Made by a program: the position numbers and the translations under genes
Part shown: positions 1,033-10,641 of the stretch, in pieces
Layout of the letters: every line of letters starts with the position of its first letter
Numbering within the stretch: the first letter of the stretch is position 1
Assembly (NCBI RefSeq): GCF_003790525.1
Contig: NZ_CP033635.1
DNA: 64,000 nucleotides
Source of the DNA: Escherichia coli
Lineage (GTDB): Bacteria; Pseudomonadota; Gammaproteobacteria; Enterobacterales; Enterobacteriaceae
Strand: one strand, 5' to 3'
Notes under the pieces: model-generated
What the model saw: the letters and a program-made list of their open reading frames with translations, nothing else
What the model was told of the DNA's origin: nothing
Databases searched by the model: none

Positions 1033-3604
1033 ACCGGTAGGCGATCTGGTCGTTGATTTAAGTCTGGATGCGGCCAGGTTTGACGAGCAGATGGCCAGAG
1101 TCAGGCGTCATTTTTCCGGTACGGAAAGTGATGCGAAAAAAACAGCGGCAGTCGTTGAACAGTCAATGAACCGGCAGGCGCTGGCTGCACAGAAAGCGGG
1201 GATTTCCGTCGGACAGTATAAAGCCGCCATGCGTATGCTGCCTGCACAGTTCACCGACGTGGCCACACAGCTTGCAGGCGGGCAGAGTCCGTGGCTGATC
1301 CTGCTGCAACAGGGCGGTCAGGTGAAGGACTCCTTCGGCGGGATGATCCCCATGTTCAGGGGGCTTGCCGGTGCGATCACCCTGCCGATGGTCGGGGCCA
1401 CCTCGCTGGCGGTGGCGACCGGTGCGCTGGCGTATGCCTGGTATCAGGGCAACTCAACCCTGTCCGATTTCAACAAAACGCTGGTCCTTTCCGGCAATCA
1501 GGCGGGACTGACGGCAGATCGTATTCTGGCCCTGTCCAGAGCCGGGCAGGCGGCAGGGCTGACGTTTAACCAGACCAGCGAGTCACTCAGTGCACTGGTT
1601 AAGGCGGGGGTAAGCGGTGAGGCTCAGATTGCGTCCATCAGCCAGAGTGTGGCGCGTTTCTCCTCTGCATCCGGCGTGGAGGTGGACAAGGTCGCTGAAG
1701 CCTTCGGGAAGCTGACCACAGACCCGACGTCGGGACTGACAGCGATGGCACGTCAGTTCCATAACGTGACGGCGGAGCAGATTGCGTATGTTGCTCAGTT
1801 GCAGCGTTCCGGAGATGAAGCCGGGGCATTGCAGGCGGCGAACGAGGCCGCAACGAAAGGGTTTGATGACCAGACCCGCCGCCTGAAAGAGAACATGGGC
1901 ACGCTGGAGACCTGGGCAGACAGGACAGCACGGGCATTCAAATCCATGTGGGATTCGGTGCTGGATATTGGTCGCCCGGACACTGCCCAGGGAATGCTGG
2001 AGAAAGCAGAAAAGGCTTTTGATGAGGCGGACAAAAAATGGCAGTGGTATCAGAGCCGGAGCCACCGGCGCGGTAAAACCTCAGCATTTCTTGCCAATCT
2101 CCGGGGAGCATGGGAGGACAGAGCGAATGCGCAACTTGGGCTTTCAGCCGCCACGTTGCAGGCCGATCTTGAAAAGGCCAGAGAGATGGCAGCAAAGGAC
2201 TGGGCCGAGTCTGAGGCATCACGGCTGAAATATACCGAAGAGGCGCAGAAGGCTTACGAACGGCTGCAGACACCGCTGGAGAAATATACCGCCCGTCAGG
2301 AAGAACTGAACAAGGCACTGAAAGACGGGAAAATCCTGCAGGCAGATTACAACACGCTGATGGCGGCGGCGAAAAAGGATTATGAAGCGACGCGGAAAAA
2401 GCCGAAACAGTCCGGCGTGAAGGTGTCTGCGGGCGATCGTCAGGAAGACAGTGCTCATGCTGCCCTGCTGACGCTTCAGGCAGAACTCCGGACGCTGGAG
2501 AAGCATGCCGGAGCGAATGAGAAAATCAGCCAGCAGCGCCGGGATTTGTGGAAGGCAGAAAGTCAGTTCGCGGTACTGGAGGAGGCGGCACAACGTCGCC
2601 AGCTGTCCGCACAGGAGAAATCCCTGCTGGCGCATAAAGATGAGACGCTGGAGTACAAACGCCAGCTGGCTGCACTTGGCGACAAGGTTACGTATCAGGA
2701 GCGCCTGAACGCGCTGGCGCAGCAGGCGGATAAATTCGCACAGCAGCAACGGGCAAAACGGGCCGCCATTGATGCGAAAAGCCGGGGGGTGACTGACCGG
2801 CAGGCAGAACGGGAAGCCACGGAACAGCGCCTGAAGGAACAGTATGGCGATAATCCGCTGGCGCTGAATAACGTCATGTCAGAGCAGAAAAAGACCTGGG
2901 CGGCTGAAGACCTGCTTCGCGGGAGCTGGATGGCAGGCCTCAGGTCCGGCTGGAGCGAGTGGAAAGAGAGTGCCACGGACAGTATGTCGCAGGTTAAAAG
3001 TGCTGCCACGCAGACCTTTGATGGTATTGCGCAGAATATGGCGGCGATGCTGACCGGCAGTGAACAGAACTGGCGTAGCTTCACCCGCTCCGTGCTGTCC
3101 ATGATGACAGAAATTCTGCTTAAGCAGGCAATGGTGGGGATTGTCGGGAGTATCGGCAGCGCCATTGGCGGGGCTGTTGGTGGCGGCGCATCCGCGTCAG
3201 GCGGTACAGCCATTCAGGCCGCTGCGGCGAAATTCCATTTTGCGACCGGAGGGTTTACGGGAACCGGCGGCAAATATGAGCCAGCGGGGATTGTTCACCG
3301 TGGTGAATTTGTCTTCACGAAGGAGGCAACCAGCCGGATTGGTGTCGGCAACCTGTACCGCCTGATGCGGGGCTATGCGGAAGGTGGTTATGTGGGCGGT
3401 GCCGGAAGTCCGGCGCAGATGCGGCGGGCTGAAGGCATTAATTTTAATCAGAACAATCACGTGGTGATTCAGAACGACGGTACGAATGGTCTGCCAGGTC
3501 CACAGATGATGAAGGCAGTGTATGACATGGCCCGCAAGGGTGCCCGTGATGAAATTCAGGCACAGATGCGCGATGGTGGTCTGTTCTCCGGAGGTGGACG
3601 ATGA
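1025..3604 (+). CDS. H: tail tape measure protein H
   Basis: 859-aa ORF, Ala/Gln-rich helical protein with Gly-rich C-terminal part; start overlaps end of T; lambda gene order. Confidence 0.9.
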   Translation: MAEPVGDLVVDLSLDAARFDEQMARVRRHFSGTESDAKKTAAVVEQSMNRQALAAQKAGISVGQYKAAMRMLPAQFTDVATQLAGGQSPWLILLQQGGQVKDSFGGMIPMFRGLAGAITLPMVGATSLAVATGALAYAWYQGNSTLSDFNKTLVLSGNQAGLTADRILALSRAGQAAGLTFNQTSESLSALVKAGVSGEAQIASISQSVARFSSASGVEVDKVAEAFGKLTTDPTSGLTAMARQFHNVTAEQIAYVAQLQRSGDEAGALQAANEAATKGFDDQTRRLKENMGTLETWADRTARAFKSMWDSVLDIGRPDTAQGMLEKAEKAFDEADKKWQWYQSRSHRRGKTSAFLANLRGAWEDRANAQLGLSAATLQADLEKAREMAAKDWAESEASRLKYTEEAQKAYERLQTPLEKYTARQEELNKALKDGKILQADYNTLMAAAKKDYEATRKKPKQSGVKVSAGDRQEDSAHAALLTLQAELRTLEKHAGANEKISQQRRDLWKAESQFAVLEEAAQRRQLSAQEKSLLAHKDETLEYKRQLAALGDKVTYQERLNALAQQADKFAQQQRAKRAAIDAKSRGVTDRQAEREATEQRLKEQYGDNPLALNNVMSEQKKTWAAEDLLRGSWMAGLRSGWSEWKESATDSMSQVKSAATQTFDGIAQNMAAMLTGSEQNWRSFTRSVLSMMTEILLKQAMVGIVGSIGSAIGGAVGGGASASGGTAIQAAAAKFHFATGGFTGTGGKYEPAGIVHRGEFVFTKEATSRIGVGNLYRLMRGYAEGGYVGGAGSPAQMRRAEGINFNQNNHVVIQNDGTNGLPGPQMMKAVYDMARKGARDEIQAQMRDGGLFSGGGR

Positions 3605-3930
3605 AGACCTTCCGCTGGAAAGTGAAACCCGGTATGGATGTGGCTTCGGCCCCTTCCGTCAGGAAAGTGCGCTTTGGTGATGGCTATTCCCAGCGAGCGC
3701 CTGCCGGTCTGAATGCCGACCTGAAAACGTACAGCGTGACGCTGTCTGTCTCCCGTGAGGAGGCCACGGCGCTGGAGTCGTTTCTGGCTGAGCACGGGGG
3801 CTGGAAGGCCTTTCTGTGGACGCCGCCTTATGAGTGGCGGCAGATAAAGGTGACCTGCGCAAAATGGTCGTCGCAGGTCCGTATGTTGCGTGTTGAGTTC
3901 AGCGCAGAGTTTGAACAGGTGGTGAACTGA
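3601..3930 (+). CDS. M: minor tail protein M
   Basis: 109-aa ORF, ATGA overlap with H stop; length and position as lambda gpM. Confidence 0.85.
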   Translation: MKTFRWKVKPGMDVASAPSVRKVRFGDGYSQRAPAGLNADLKTYSVTLSVSREEATALESFLAEHGGWKAFLWTPPYEWRQIKVTCAKWSSQVRMLRVEFSAEFEQVVN

Positions 3931-4628
3931 TGCAGGATATCCGGCAGGAAACACTGAATGAATGCACCCGTGCGGAGCAGTCGGCCAGCGTGGTGCTCTG
4001 GGAAATCGATCTGACAGAGGTCGGTGGCGAACGTTATTTTTTCTGTAATGAGCAGAACGAAAAAGGTGAGCCGGTCACCTGGCAGGAGCGGCAGTATCAG
4101 CCGTATCCCATTCAGGGGAGTGGTTTTGAACTGAATGGCAAAGGCACCAGTACGCGCCCCACGCTGACGGTTTCTAACCTGTACGGTATGGTCACCGGTA
4201 TGGTGGAAGATATGCAGAGTCTGGTCGGCGGAACGGTGGTCCGGCGTAAAGTTTATGCCCGTTTTCTGGATGCGGTGAACTTCGTCAACGGAAACAGTGA
4301 CGCCGATCCGGAGCAGGAGGTTATCAGCCGCTGGCGCATCGAGCAGTGCAGTGATTTGACAGCGGTCAGCGCGACCTTTGTACTGGCCACGCCGACGGAA
4401 ACGGACGGCGCTGTTTTTCCGGGACGTATCATGCTGGCCAACACCTGCACCTGGACCTATCGCGGCGATGAGTGCGGTTATAGCGGTCCGGCGGTCGCGG
4501 ATGAATATGATCAGCCGACGTCCGATATCACGAAGGATAAATGCAGCAAATGCCTGAGCGGCTGTAAGTTCCGCAATAACGTCGGCAACTTTGGCGGTTT
4601 TCTTTCCATTCACAAACTTTCGCAGTAA
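3930..4628 (+). CDS. L: minor tail protein L
   Basis: 232-aa ORF MQDIRQETLNECTRAEQSASVVLWEIDLTEVGGERYFFCNEQNEKGEPVTWQ... closely resembles lambda gpL as recalled. Confidence 0.9.
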   Translation: MQDIRQETLNECTRAEQSASVVLWEIDLTEVGGERYFFCNEQNEKGEPVTWQERQYQPYPIQGSGFELNGKGTSTRPTLTVSNLYGMVTGMVEDMQSLVGGTVVRRKVYARFLDAVNFVNGNSDADPEQEVISRWRIEQCSDLTAVSATFVLATPTETDGAVFPGRIMLANTCTWTYRGDECGYSGPAVADEYDQPTSDITKDKCSKCLSGCKFRNNVGNFGGFLSIHKLSQ

Positions 4629-5981: not shown

Positions 5982-8900
5982 ATGGGTAAAGGCAGCAGTA
6001 AGGGGCATACCCCGCGCGAAGCGAAGGACAACCTGAAGTCCACGCAGTTGCTGAGTGTGATCGATGTCATCAGCGAAGGGCCGATACAAGGACCGGTGGA
6101 TGGATTAAAAAGCGTGCTGCTGAACGGTACGCCGGTGCTGGACAGTGAGGGGAATACCAATATATCCGGCGTCACGGTGGTATTCCGGGCCGGTGAGCAG
6201 GAGCAGACGCCGCCGGAGGGATTTGAATCCTCCGGCTCCGAGACGGTGCTGGGTACGGAAGTGAAGTACGACACGCCGATCACCCGGACCATCACGTCGG
6301 CAAACATCGACCGTCTGCGCCTGACCTTCGGTGTGCAGGCTCTGGTGGAAACCACCTCAAAGGGGGACCGGAATCCGTCGGAAGTCCGCCTGCTGGTTCA
6401 GATACAGCGTAACGGTGGCTGGGTGACGGAAAAAGACATCACCATTAAGGGCAAAACCACCTCGCAGTATCTGGCCTCGGTGGTGGTGGGTAACCTGCCG
6501 CCGCGCCCGTTTAATATCCGGATGCGCAGGATGACGCCGGACAGCACCACAGACCAGCTGCAGAACAAAACGCTCTGGTCGTCATACACCGAAATCATCG
6601 ATGTGAAACAGTGCTACCCGAACACGGCACTGGTCGGTGTGCAGGTGGATTCGGAGCAGTTCGGCAGCCAGCAGGTGAGCCGTAATTATCATTTTCGCGG
6701 GCGCATTCTGCAGGTGCCGTCGAACTATAACCCGCAGACGCGGCAATACAGCGGTATCTGGGACGGAACGTTTAAACCGGCATACAGCGATAACCCGGCC
6801 TGGTGTCTGTGGGATATGCTGACCCACCCGCGCTACGGCATGGGGAAACGTGTTGGCGCAGCGGATGTGGACAAATGGGCGCTGTATGTTATCGGCCAGT
6901 ACTGCGACCAGTCGGTGCCGGACGGCTCTGGTGGCACGGAGCCGCGCATCACCTGTAATGCCTGGCTGACCAGGCAGCGTAAGGCGTGGGATGTGCTCAG
7001 TGATTTCTGCTCGGCGATGCGCTGTATGCCGGTATGGAACGGGCAGACGCTGACGTTCGTGCAGGACCGGCCGTCGGATAAGGTGTGGACCTATAACCGC
7101 AGTAATGTGGTGATGCCGGATGATGGCGCGCCGTTCCGCTACAGCTTCAGCGCCCTGAAGGACCGCCATAATGCCGTTGAGGTGAACTGGAGTGACCCGG
7201 ATAACGGCCAGGAGACGGCGACAGAGCTTGTGGAGGACACGCAGGCCATTGCCCGTTACGGTCGTAACGTCACGAAGATGGATGCCTTTGGCTGTACCAG
7301 CCGGGGGCAGGCACACCGCGCCGGGCTGTGGCTGATTAAAACAGAACTGCTGGAGACGCAGACCGTGGATTTCAGCGTGGGTGCTGAAGGGCTTCGCCAT
7401 GTACCGGGGGATGTCATTGAAATCTGCGATGATGACTATGCCGGTATCAGCACCGGTGGTCGTGTGCTGGCGGTGAACAGCCAGACCCGGACGCTGACGC
7501 TCGACCGTGAAATCACGCTGCCATCCTCCGGTACCACGCTGATAAGTCTGGTTGACGGAAGTGGCAATCCGGTCAGCGTGGAGGTTCAGTCCGTCACCGA
7601 CGGCGTGAAGGTAAAAGTGAGCCGGGTTCCTGACGGCGTTGCCGAGTACAGCGTGTGGGGGCTGAAGCTGCCGACGCTGCGCCAGCGCCTGTTCCGCTGC
7701 GTGAGTATCCGTGAGAACGACGACGGCACGTATGCCATCACCGCCGTGCAGCATGTACCGGAAAAAGAGGGCATCGTGGATAACGGGGCACACTTTGACG
7801 GTGACCAGAGCGGCACGGTGAATGGTGTCACGCCGCCAGCAGTGCAGCACCTGACTGTCGAAGTCACCGCAGACAGCGGGGAGTATCAGGTACTGGCCCG
7901 CTGGGACACGCCGAAGGTGGTGAAGGGCGTGAGCTTCCTGCTTCGCCTGACCGTGGCCGCGGATGACGGCAGTGAGCGGCTGGTCAGCACGGCCCGGACG
8001 ACGGAAACCACATACCGCTTCAGGCAGCTGGCACCGGGGAACTACAGGCTGACAGTCCGGGCAGTAAATGCCCGGGGGCAGCAGGGAGACCCGGCGTCGG
8101 TATCGTTCCGGATTGCCGCACCGGCAGCGCCGTCGCGGATTGAGCTGACGCCGGGCTATTTTCAGATAACCGCCACGCCGCATCTTGCGGTTTATGATCC
8201 GACGGTACAGTTTGAGTTCTGGTTTTCGGAAAAGCGGATTACCGATATCAGGCAGGTTGAAACCACAGCCCGTTATCTTGGTACCGGAAGTCAGTGGCTT
8301 GTCTCCGGCCAGAATATTAAACCTGGCCATGATTATTACTTTTATATCCGCAGTGTTAACACTGTCGGTAAATCGGCATTCGTGGAGGCAGTCGGTCGGG
8401 CGAGTAATGATCCTGCCGGTTACCTTAATTTTTTCAGGGGGGCGATAAATAAAACGCATCTGGGACGGGAGATCAATGAACGCATTGATGCCTCTGCACG
8501 GCGCACTGAAGTTGAGCAACTGGAGAATGCGATTAACCGCGAAATGACGCAGCTGGAGAATGCGATTAACCGCGAAATGACGCAGCTGGAGAAAGATGTG
8601 AGGCAGCGTGCGGAGCGTGATATCGCAGAGGTGACGAAAAAAATCACGGCGTCTGAAAACAGCATAACGGAACTGGTGGCGAAAAAGAGCGGTGAACAGT
8701 CGCTGGCCATTGCGAAAGTCGACAGGAAAGTTGACAGCGTGAGCAGTGAAATCCGGCAGACAGTGAGCAGGAGCACGGAGGAGAACAGCCGACAGATAGC
8801 GCAGGTCAGGCAGTATGTTGATGATAAAAGTGCGCAAATAAGTACTGTTGTGGCGAAAAAGAGCGGTGAACAGTCGCTGGCCATTGCGAAAGTCGACAGG

Positions 8901-9698
8901 AAAGTTGACAGCGTGAGCAGTGAAATCCGGCAGACAGTAAGCAGGAGCACGGAGGAGAACAGCCGACAGATAGCGCAGGTCAGGCAGTATGTTGATGATA
9001 AAAGTGCGCAAATAAGTACTGTTGTGGCGAAAAAGAGCGGTGAACAGTCAATGGCCATTGCGGAAGTTGACAGAAAAGTTGACAGGATGGGCAGCGAAAT
9101 CCGGCAGACAGTAAGCAGGAGCACGGAGGAGAACAGCCGACAGATAGCGCAGATCAGACAGTATGTTGATGATAAGGGAAGTCAGATCACACAGAGCACG
9201 GATAAAAAACTGGGATCCTGGAATGCCAGCATTGAGCAGATACAGAAAGTTCAGGAGGACACGCGCCGGAACCTGAACAGCATGTGGGCTGTGAAGCTGC
9301 AGCAGACACGGGATGGACGTCTCTATATTGCAGGTATTGGTGCCGGAATCGAAAATACGTCTGACGGAATTCAGAGTCAGATCCTGATGCAGGCAGATCG
9401 TATTGCGATGATTAACCCGGAAAATGGCAATACAACACCTTTGTTTGTGGCTCAGGGTGATCAGCTGTTCATGAATGATGTTTTCATGAAAAAACTGACC
9501 GTGGATTTTGCCAGAGTGACGGGAGATATCCGGTCAGATAATTTTGATTCCGGTAGTCCGGGGTGGCGTTTATCAAGAAACGGCAGCCTTGAAATTAACT
9601 CAGGAAGGCCCGGCGCAGGCCGCCTGTTTTTCAATGGCGAGCGAATCGACGTATATGACGATAACAATGTGTTAAGAGTACGACTGGGGAGACTGTAA
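5982..9698 (+). CDS. J: host specificity / central tail fibre protein J, with repeat-containing C-terminal region
   Basis: 1238-aa ORF after I; N-terminal part lambda-J-like; in-frame tandem repeats in the C-terminal third; C-terminus unlike lambda J. Confidence 0.9.
8520..8585 (+). repeat. 2 x 33-bp in-frame tandem repeat within J ([11 protein letters not shown] x2)
   Basis: ctggagaatgcgattaaccgcgaaatgacgcag occurs twice back to back. Confidence 0.9.
8676..9197 (+). repeat. 3 x 174-bp in-frame tandem repeat within J (58-aa unit [57 protein letters not shown])
   Basis: Unit starts at 8676, 8850 and 9024 (period 174); third copy slightly diverged. Confidence 0.9.
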
Positions 9699-9958
9699 TG
9701 TTCGGAGTCCGGGTATGGTGCAAAGGGCGCCTTGTGACACATGAAATAAACCCAACAGGGGTGCTGGATGTGATCACTGAAGGGACGGGGCAGCGTTCTT
9801 ATACTCCTTTGCAGGGCTGGCGTCTGGAAGTCTGTTCACCGGCCATTCTGATTAACGGTCAGGGAAGTCATACCAGTGCCAGTGTATCCGGCTGGACAGT
9901 GCACTATGCCAACACAAGCTGGCTAAGACCCGTGCTGGTCATGATAAGGGGGATCTGA
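9698..9958 (+). CDS. hypothetical phage protein, translationally coupled to J
   Basis: 86-aa ORF; ATG overlaps J stop (TAATG); no recognised family. Confidence 0.4.
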   Translation: MFGVRVWCKGRLVTHEINPTGVLDVITEGTGQRSYTPLQGWRLEVCSPAILINGQGSHTSASVSGWTVHYANTSWLRPVLVMIRGI

Positions 9959-10620
9959 TGTTTGCACTTAAATTAACTGATGAGCGGGGGAGAGAATGGA
10001 TATCACCTGTTGCGCCGCCACTGAACCTTGTGCGCCGTTTTCATTTCACACTGAGTGCGCGTGATGCGGTGATGCAGTTTATCGACACCGGGGTGCCGAC
10101 GAATTATCGTTGCGTGATTTTTATTAAACAGATAAGCGGTAATCAGTCCTTCCATGGTGAAATGGTTCAGCTTAACGGTACCTGGCAGTATGACATTTTC
10201 AGCGCTGGTACAGGGCAGGAGCCGGGCATGGAACAGGACAGCACATATGTTGTTTATGTTTTTGCCAACATGGTGAATGTATGGCCGCAATGGGGAATAC
10301 AGTTGTGCGACAGTCATGGCAGGGTGGTCTGGAACACGGAAATGCTGCCACTGGAAGTAAAAATGACGCGAATATGGGAAAAGGATGTACCGATCAGTGT
10401 GGGACATGATGTGGCCGTAATGCCGGGGTGTACCCAGTGGACGACAGTTCAGGAAGGGGAGAGTTATTACTGGTATACCGCCAGTTTTAATGCCAGAAAC
10501 TCACAGTTATGGCGTCAGTCAACTTTTGCTGAAGATAACGTAGCGGCGCCCAATGATAATTCAGGTGTTGTTAATAACCTCTGTTATTACATAAATGCAG
10601 AAATTTATGATGCGTACTGA
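9958..10620 (+). CDS. hypothetical phage protein (Trp/Tyr-rich, no signal peptide)
   Basis: 220-aa ORF; ATG overlaps preceding stop (TGATG); co-oriented with tail genes; not Lom-like. Confidence 0.5.
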   Translation: MFALKLTDERGREWISPVAPPLNLVRRFHFTLSARDAVMQFIDTGVPTNYRCVIFIKQISGNQSFHGEMVQLNGTWQYDIFSAGTGQEPGMEQDSTYVVYVFANMVNVWPQWGIQLCDSHGRVVWNTEMLPLEVKMTRIWEKDVPISVGHDVAVMPGCTQWTTVQEGESYYWYTASFNARNSQLWRQSTFAEDNVAAPNDNSGVVNNLCYYINAEIYDAY

Positions 10621-10641
10621 TAGTTATGTTGAGGGCATGTA

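Follow-up and report, generated by a model that had tools for sequence, protein, structure and literature searches.

The J gene described here lies in a 64,000-nucleotide stretch of Escherichia coli DNA (contig NZ_CP033635.1 of assembly GCF_003790525.1; the whole stretch is referred to as the window), in which the open reading frame (ORF) list places it on the plus strand at positions 5982..9698, encoding a tip attachment or central tail fibre protein of 1238 amino acids (aa). Three exchangeable modules make up this mosaic gene. Module A (aa 1–~820; 5982..8440) is a lambda-type body that includes two immunoglobulin (Ig)-like/FN3 domains and that would, as a cone with these domains, fix the J trimer to the tail tip; module B (aa ~820–1170) appears to comprise a long alpha-helical stalk followed by a conserved tip-fibre domain; and module C would comprise the last ~66 aa of J together with three downstream genes, encoding proteins of 86, 220 and 81 aa and lying on the same strand.

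An earlier sequence-only reading of this DNA had named the gene J, and this identification is secure. In a phmmer search of PDB sequences the 1238-aa protein matches lambda J (8iyk_J) with E=0 and residues 1–838 aligned, and BLASTP gives 93.7% amino acid identity over residues 1–836; the whole lambda-homologous N-terminal body expected of a lambda-type tip attachment protein is thus present. A Pfam search covering J residues 601–1238 finds Ig_J (PF24421; 6e-43), Ig_J_second (PF24489; 5e-40) and Phage_Tail_Tip (PF09327; 3.9e-34), which is the combination of two Ig-like/FN3 domains and a tail-tip-fibre domain seen in lambda-type J proteins. The Ig-like domains occupy aa 610–714 and aa 716–818 (positions 7809-8435, plus strand), and the tail-tip-fibre domain, the second part of module B, occupies aa 1084–1209 (9231..9608, plus strand). 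Nucleotide identity to lambda J is ~86–100% in nearly all 60-nt bins to about position 8440, the exceptions being single bins at 8262 (63%) and 8382 (80%); beyond that position it collapses. At the protein level, about 95 residues to the C-terminal side of the stalk align with lambda J residues 841–934 at 56% identity; the tip-fibre domain also aligns with 8jvm_F and 8xcj_Z.

The stalk (aa ~826–1099; 8457..9278, plus strand) contributes about 240 residues for which lambda J has no counterpart, and the landmarks FVEAVGRAS and MWAVK, which are 62 aa apart in lambda J, are separated by 301 aa in the window J. There is no proline in 266 residues (~820–1085), and the hydrophobicity has a single dominant period of 3.64 residues, with a power of 193 compared to a shuffle mean of 30 (standard deviation 13, maximum 131; none of 2000 shuffles reaches it), as computed on a de-replicated segment from which duplicate units had been removed. 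All sub-segments of the stalk peak at 3.62–3.70, away from the 3.5 of the classical heptad. The period is hendecad-like (11/3 = 3.67), and the coiled-coil character noted earlier therefore stands as regards a helical bundle, as shown by amphipathic periodicity sustained without helix breakers, but not as regards a heptad register. A single-sequence AlphaFold2 (AF2) monomer model of J residues 800–1238, of low confidence (pLDDT 50) and used for secondary-structure propensity only, has helices at aa 826–959 and 965–1099. Given this period, and by analogy with the J trimers in the lambda and T1 structures, the stalk is probably a nearly straight three-helix bundle.

Two tandem arrays lie within the stalk. 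The first (8516..8581, plus strand) has two 33-bp units (8516-8548 and 8549-8581) of 11 aa each, corresponding to about three helical turns or one hendecad; the second (8676..9197, plus strand) has three 174-bp units of 58 aa each in the arrangement A-A-B, corresponding to about 16 turns at 3.625 residues per turn. The two in-frame repeats reported by the sequence-only reading are borne out by two repeat finders: Tandem Repeats Finder reports 2.4 copies of the 33-bp unit (8516-8593, 97% matches, score 149) and 2.9 copies of the 174-bp unit (8676-9175, 96% matches, score 916), and a second, independent program places the 174-nt copies at 8676-8849, 8850-9023 (99% identical) and 9024-9197 (84%). 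Their length and similarity are far beyond chance. Copies 1 and 2 of the larger unit differ at a single nucleotide and encode identical units, while 28 positions separate copy 3 from copy 1, and we therefore regard the array as an older, diverged A/B pair in which A was recently duplicated. Both unit lengths are divisible by three and in frame, and because they span close to whole numbers of turns (~3 and ~16), gain or loss of a unit should not shift the phase of the hydrophobic seam. With a rise of 0.15 nm per residue, each 58-aa unit should change the length of the fibre by ~8.7 nm and each 11-aa unit by ~1.7 nm. We reject a role of the repeats in phase variation or frameshifting, since the units are long multiples of three and the frame is kept in every allele seen. 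The stalk of T1 gp33 has its own in-frame repeat, 2.2 copies of a 99-bp unit of 33 aa (~9 turns, or about three hendecads; positions 27809-28029 of record L011).

The number of units varies among strains, which supports the earlier suggestion of a fibre of variable length. The window allele has three 58-aa and two 11-aa units (3+2), as does AR_0085, an independent complete genome; TUM1886 and GF60 have two of each (2+2), and LH50-c, Ch1 and strain 135 have two 58-aa units and one 11-aa unit (2+1). The J gene of GF60 (record L006, 1-5012) has an insertion sequence (IS), IS21, inside it, and that of strain 135 (record L007, 1583-6886) is truncated at its 3′ end by IS66. A wider protein search yields the combinations 1+1, 2+1, 2+2 and 3+1 among its matches, while 3+2 is seen in the window and AR_0085. 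Differences in allele length are exact multiples of the units, and the two-unit state of the 58-aa array dominates, the three-unit state being rare. One-unit alleles are A-head/B-tail hybrids, and in a second kind of three-unit allele the middle unit is a B-head/A-tail hybrid; hybrid units and lengths in unit multiples are the pattern expected of repeated unequal crossing-over. A large, more distant group of E. coli J proteins (~51% identical over the region) has a single related unit, showing that a helical insert of this kind is common in the J proteins of E. coli prophages.

Tandem copies this similar raise the question of whether the third 174-bp unit and the second 33-bp unit, at least, are products of assembly. 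Copies 1 and 2 are only one base apart, and most of the homologues of the J C-terminal region in the databases are incomplete, being cut off where contigs end, which suggests that the repeat region routinely breaks short-read assemblies and that copy number is under-sampled in draft genomes. However, the identical 1238-aa protein is present in RefSeq (WP_225877568.1) and in a UniRef100 entry with 17 E. coli members, AR_0085 has the same 3+2 structure with point substitutions of its own, and other records show a different three-unit arrangement as well as lengths in exact unit multiples. The RefSeq protein and AR_0085 make misassembly, which had been named as the result that would overturn the repeat count, very unlikely, and we give it almost no weight.

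A second question is whether the length variation matters to the phage. One explanation accepts the fibre architecture described here and regards the variation as neutral, with the copy number of recombination-prone repeats drifting in a tolerant helical spacer, possibly in decaying prophages, and with host range and adsorption unaffected. In-phase units would be tolerated structurally, the two-unit state is dominant and the three-unit state rare, and several carriers have a J gene or neighbouring genes disrupted by IS elements, all of which agree with drift. Pointing the other way, but only indirectly, are the observations that only in-phase units are seen, that the stalk is kept as an intact ORF across many strains, and that a similar in-frame duplication occurs in the unrelated T1. 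We regard neutral variation as a serious contender, at somewhat less than even odds; any selective value of stalk length is something we infer.

The end of J is short. The protein terminates about 30–65 residues after the tail-tip-fibre domain, depending on the boundary chosen, and 57–66 aa after the segment shared with lambda. Lambda J residues ~943–1132, the LamB-binding end, have no counterpart in the window J by phmmer, BLASTP or alignment, and the Pfam search of J residues 601–1238 has no match to PF12421, which marks lambda-type C-termini in relatives; the self-contained C-terminal receptor-binding domain of lambda-type J proteins is thus lacking. In its place, the last 75 residues align with the ends of T1 gp33, phi80 gp21, N15 gp21, tonn_68 and orf62 of the podophage VT2-Sakai, and have the conserved motif of these short fibre ends, IxSxNF..GWxL..G...V.D.....LRV..GR. 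By phmmer the end also matches gp56 of Pseudomonas phage DEV (9ze4_N, residues 369–427, E 1.2e-7), the SU10 tip fibre (7z4b_EA) and the end of 9l9p_S. Judged by these alignments, the non-lambda end is a conserved terminal module and not a novel receptor-binding domain.

These findings bear on several points first made about the end. The sequence-only reading held that the end is unlike the LamB-binding domain of lambda, which agrees with the absence of any alignment past lambda residue ~942. It also allowed that the C-terminus might align with lambda J after all; it does so in the conserved tip-fibre segment, and not in the receptor-binding part. Finally, a different receptor had been suggested on the grounds of a non-lambda C-terminal domain. 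As the J end is not a LamB-binding domain, a receptor other than LamB is indeed likely, but the end itself is not a receptor domain, the same module being present in T1, phi80, N15, tonn and VT2-Sakai. All of these fibres precede a pair of small genes of the type found next to the window J, and the terminal ~66 aa (9492..9698, plus strand), where module C starts, are a candidate docking end for separately encoded proteins.

Immediately downstream is an 86-aa gene (9698..9958, plus strand) of the N15 gp22/T1 gp32 family (phrog_557, E 8.5e-4), whose product is putatively a small adaptor or an Ig-like protein of the tip. The J stop and the start of this gene share the sequence TAATG, the start is accompanied by a Shine-Dalgarno motif (GGGGAG), and the protein aligns at 19–32% identity with its T1, phi80, N15, tonn and VT2 homologues, N-terminus included. 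In RefSeq the gene starts 12 codons later (74 aa; positions 7335-7559 of the AR_0085 record); the overlap, the Shine-Dalgarno motif and the alignment of homologues support the 86-aa form over the 74-aa form. The gene has the same position as its counterparts in T1, phi80 and N15, which are annotated elsewhere as ‘outer membrane protein’, and as a small (~75–100 aa) coupled gene directly 3′ of a fibre gene it corresponds, with weak though consistent homology, to the first gene of a split tip module. An hhalign comparison of the 86-aa family to the C-terminal 190 residues of lambda J gives no match (probability 0.6%), and the published idea that the small protein is the equivalent of the Ig-like receptor domain of lambda is unconfirmed by sequence.

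The second gene (9958..10620, plus strand) encodes a 220-aa protein of the N15 gp23/T1 gp31 family (phrog_425, E 3.3e-27) and is a candidate receptor-binding protein gene. It overlaps the stop of the 86-aa gene (TGATG), has a Shine-Dalgarno motif, and corresponds in position and size to the next gene of the split module, which encodes a ‘membrane associated’ or ‘hand-like’ protein of ~200–230 aa; its homologues carry the first of these names elsewhere, and the second is that of Matusiak 2025. A family profile search finds 293 members among 1.84 billion representatives. The window protein is 18–22% identical to the family and 53% identical to an E. coli paralogue group. An AF2 model from a 110-member alignment is all-beta with high confidence (pLDDT 91, pTM 0.88), and in BFVD the same fold recurs in uncharacterised proteins of phages with many hosts. 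The model matches the receptor-binding protein of phage Oekolampad (Bas18) bound to LptDE (PDB 9RPT), at 12% sequence identity. Searches of PDB sequences with the 220-aa protein and with the 220-aa, 86-aa and Cor family profiles gave nothing significant, and the link to the solved receptor-binding protein thus comes from fold comparison only. Sharing a fold with the Oekolampad protein does not imply sharing its receptor.

The third gene (10642..10887, plus strand) encodes an 81-aa putative superinfection-exclusion lipoprotein. It has a lipoprotein signal peptide with the lipobox LVSGC and the conserved cysteine pair typical of Cor, C28 and C79 being invariant with the T1, phi80 and N15 Cor proteins, to which it is 27–36% identical. 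Its best PHROG is phrog_27799 (1.7e-8), of unknown function, ahead of phrog_1119 (Cor; 8.6e-7), and its score of 28.7 bits (E 9.5e-7) against NCBIfam NF047972 is just below the cut-off of 31; for both reasons we refer to it as Cor-like and not as Cor. The gene is unannotated in the RefSeq relatives examined, where it falls in the gap between the 220-aa and side-tail-fibre genes (e.g. positions 6047-6387 of record L003), yet an identical 81-aa protein is found on 777 contigs of public assemblies. Following it at 10923..10948 (plus strand) is an intrinsic-terminator-like hairpin, CCCGCAATTTTGCGGG, and T-run, ATTATTTTTT, which closes the transcription unit running from J to cor; in phi80 and N15 terminators are annotated at the same position after cor.

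These genes bear on a rival explanation, in which J itself binds the receptor by a novel, compact C-terminal domain and the small downstream genes encode unrelated membrane proteins of lysogenic conversion. The database names of the homologues (‘outer membrane protein’, ‘membrane associated protein’) would fit it, the gene after J in lambda is a moron (lom), and a preprint describes distal GpJ domains that add specificity, for example for NupG. Yet the last ~66 aa of J are conserved among fibres of phages with different receptors (FhuA for T1, phi80 and N15; BamA for the 933W type), unlike a specificity domain, and the small genes are translationally coupled to J. The only helix in the 220-aa model is five residues long, too short to span a membrane, the model matches a solved phage receptor-binding protein, and the equivalent genes of DEV are essential, with suppressor mutations in the larger one. 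We consider receptor binding by J itself improbable, and the specificity determinants likely lie outside the J interval to which attention had been drawn, at 9698-10887.

The distribution of the modules is informative as to where they join. Window positions 8400-10900 (stalk and downstream module) have matches at 95% identity or more in 22 records from 5,426 complete E. coli genomes, and only nine of these cover at least 80% of the interval, with the short end and both small annotated genes. The NRZ14408 allele encodes a 1302-aa J with a window-type stalk and a lambda-like long end; it is 93–100% identical to the window J outside both repeat arrays, unit deletions lowering the identity within them, and its identity falls at ~9490 (~aa 1170). 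The same stalk is thus found on two different ends, and the last ~66 codons of J go with the genes downstream. A megablast search of 50,697 phage records found no phage carrier of the helical insert or of the downstream module, and matched only the lambda-like body and the tip-fibre segment.

The explanation that we favor for the locus as a whole, with a probability of roughly 0.78, is a patchwork J in which a lambda-type body carries a length-variable stalk and a docking end, with the receptor bound by a separately encoded protein. What is observed here is that J is a mosaic, where its modules join, that its repeats are polymorphic, that the locus is homologous to and syntenic with those of T1, phi80 and N15, and that the fold of the 220-aa model matches that of a proven receptor-binding protein. 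Unequal crossing-over would add or remove units, altering fibre length without disturbing the register of the helical core; the short J end would dock the 86-aa and 220-aa proteins, the 220-aa protein would bind an outer-membrane protein, and superinfection through this receptor would be blocked by the Cor-like lipoprotein expressed in the lysogen. Extending this, the stalk could be an evolvable ruler, in which repeated, register-preserving gain and loss of 11-aa and 58-aa units sets the projection of the receptor-binding protein to the thickness of O-antigen or capsule, with the 220-aa protein on an outer-membrane protein that is new as a lambdoid receptor; we think this unlikely.

Several published studies describe such an arrangement. 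The BASEL study put forward the idea that, in small siphophages, the genes directly 3′ of gpJ encode dedicated receptor-binding proteins and lipoproteins for exclusion (PMC8594841), and a 2026 preprint confirms a receptor-binding protein locus downstream of gpJ and reports that the GpJ tip co-varies with it. In the arrangement described by Matusiak et al. 2025, a ‘knife-like’ fibre end is followed by a small Ig-like protein and then by a ‘hand-like’ protein, the latter predicted by AF2-Multimer to bind FhuA (JLBYU60) or BamA (tv24B) (PMC12309495). In DEV, gp54 has been identified genetically as the protein that binds the receptor LptD, and low-resolution cryo-electron microscopy with AlphaFold3 modelling places gp55 as an adaptor on the gp56 trimer; stop and start codons overlap in this module in the same way (PMC12892993). 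By analogy with the DEV genetics and modelling and the AF2-Multimer work, the 86-aa and 220-aa proteins most likely sit at the fibre tip, with the larger one on the receptor.

Some points weigh against this patchwork explanation or limit it. The placement of the two small proteins comes from that analogy, the family assignment of the 86-aa protein is weak, as seen from its E-value and identities, and the Cor-like protein scores just below its family cut-off. The stalk model is monomeric and of low confidence. The 220-aa protein has such low identity (18–22%) to homologues with known receptors that its receptor is not readable from sequence. Nor is a Cor-like lipoprotein diagnostic of FhuA, since Warwickviruses, which reportedly do not rely solely on this receptor, have one with their tonn-type module. 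Lastly, two IS elements lie just 3′ of the module, and the prophage may accordingly be defective and the array may drift neutrally.

As to the receptor, FhuA is used by T1, phi80 and N15, and Cor is known to act on FhuA for the phi80, N15 and mEp167 proteins (Uc-Mass 2004, cited in PMC9836094); BamA is used by tv24B, a relative of the 933W-type phages (PMC12309495). An assignment to FhuA from T1/phi80/N15 synteny and the Cor-like gene was considered and not kept, because tonn-type modules also come with a Cor-like lipoprotein. It is further weakened by the 44% identity between the ~204-aa proteins of tonn and of the BamA-dependent 933W-type/VT2-Sakai phages, and by the window proteins being about equally distant from the T1/FhuA and 933W/BamA subtypes. 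FhuA is our leading but doubtful guess, and BamA or another outer-membrane protein would otherwise be the likely receptor. The two-gene tip module is shared by tonn, a T1-like siphophage (record L009, 5451-6615), and by the short-tailed Stx phages of the VT2-Sakai type (record L010, 4768-5618); in tonn the Cor-like lipoprotein (tonn_65) is upstream and the module is convergent with J, not co-directional.

Between the cor terminator and the side-tail-fibre gene are an IS256-family element with its transposase (11264-12472) and an IS66 element with tnpA, tnpB and tnpC (12531-15155); AR_0085 has only IS66 at this site. The side-tail-fibre gene (15218-16849) encodes 543 aa, with strong partial matches to collagen-like adhesin models that indicate Gly-X-Y repeats, and is followed by a 191-aa ORF with no match to an NCBIfam model, at a position annotated in relatives as a DUF4376 protein. 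Two long ORFs run antisense to J, at 6582..9011 (809 aa) and 8420..9124 (234 aa). The repeats had been credited with producing the long antisense ORFs, and they do account for the 234-aa ORF and for the lengthening of the 809-aa ORF, but not for the origin of the latter, which begins ~1.9 kb upstream of the repeats. Repeat-free lambda J has an antisense ORF of 564 aa in the homologous stretch (positions 2436-4130 of record L002, minus strand), and long antisense ORFs thus seem to reflect the composition of J genes.

The locus is a clean natural example of a change in lambdoid host recognition by cassette swapping, and does not overturn current understanding. With break-points at the stalk and ~66 codons short of the J stop, the end of the fibre moves together with the proposed adaptor, receptor-binding protein and exclusion lipoprotein that belong to it. 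Annotation is affected as well: labels such as ‘hypothetical’, ‘outer membrane’ or ‘membrane associated’ protein hide the genes that likely determine specificity, and receptor prediction from prophage sequences would be misled by reading the J C-terminus alone. The alleles with one, two and three 58-aa units are a ready allelic series on the relation between central-fibre length and adsorption through surface polysaccharide. Of modest interest are the register-preserving units, the recurrent change in copy number, and a divergent subtype of receptor-binding protein, the third beside those of T1/FhuA and 933W/BamA.

Comparison with known systems places the window J between several of them. Lambda gpJ (PDB 8IYK, 8XCJ, 8XCK) shares the cone and two Ig-like domains (residues 1–836) and the tip-fibre segment (841–934), and differs in three respects. 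First, the window J has ~240 added helical residues between the second Ig-like domain and the tip fibre; secondly, the C-terminal ~190 residues of lambda gpJ (the LamB-binding domain, PF12421) are absent; and thirdly, the position of lom is taken by three other genes. Those systems that share module C differ from the window in their J body or their phage type. In T1 (gp33-gp32-gp31-cor), phi80 (gp21-22-23-cor) and N15 (gp21-22-23-24(cor)) the gene order and sizes are as in the window, with a fibre gene followed by genes of ~100 aa and ~225 aa, cor and then a terminator, and the likeness goes further: a helical stalk precedes the tip fibre, J ends in the same motif, the small proteins are homologous and the lipoprotein is of the Cor type. 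T1 also shares an in-frame tandem repeat in the stalk, and at the C-terminus of its fibre an alpha/beta-helical extension of ~370 angstroms has been predicted (PMC11945409). The J bodies of these phages are only 28–35% identical to that of the window, and their small proteins 18–36%, to be set against the 30% that defines receptor-specific families in the 2026 preprint.

The module of Matusiak et al. and DEV gp56-gp55-gp54 resemble the window locus in having a fibre without its own receptor-binding domain and two coupled downstream genes, and in DEV also in the alignment of the J end with gp56 residues 369–427, but they belong to Dhillonvirus, Traversvirus, Littlefixvirus and Litunavirus phages, whereas the window encodes a lambda-type siphophage. 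Oekolampad, which provides the fold match, has a larger receptor-binding protein (254 residues resolved; ~309 aa in full) and a companion lipoprotein of the Rtp45 type, compared to the Cor type of the window. The window J, already present in RefSeq as gpJ, is a further example of the known T1/phi80/N15 architecture, here with the module grafted onto a true lambda-type J body.

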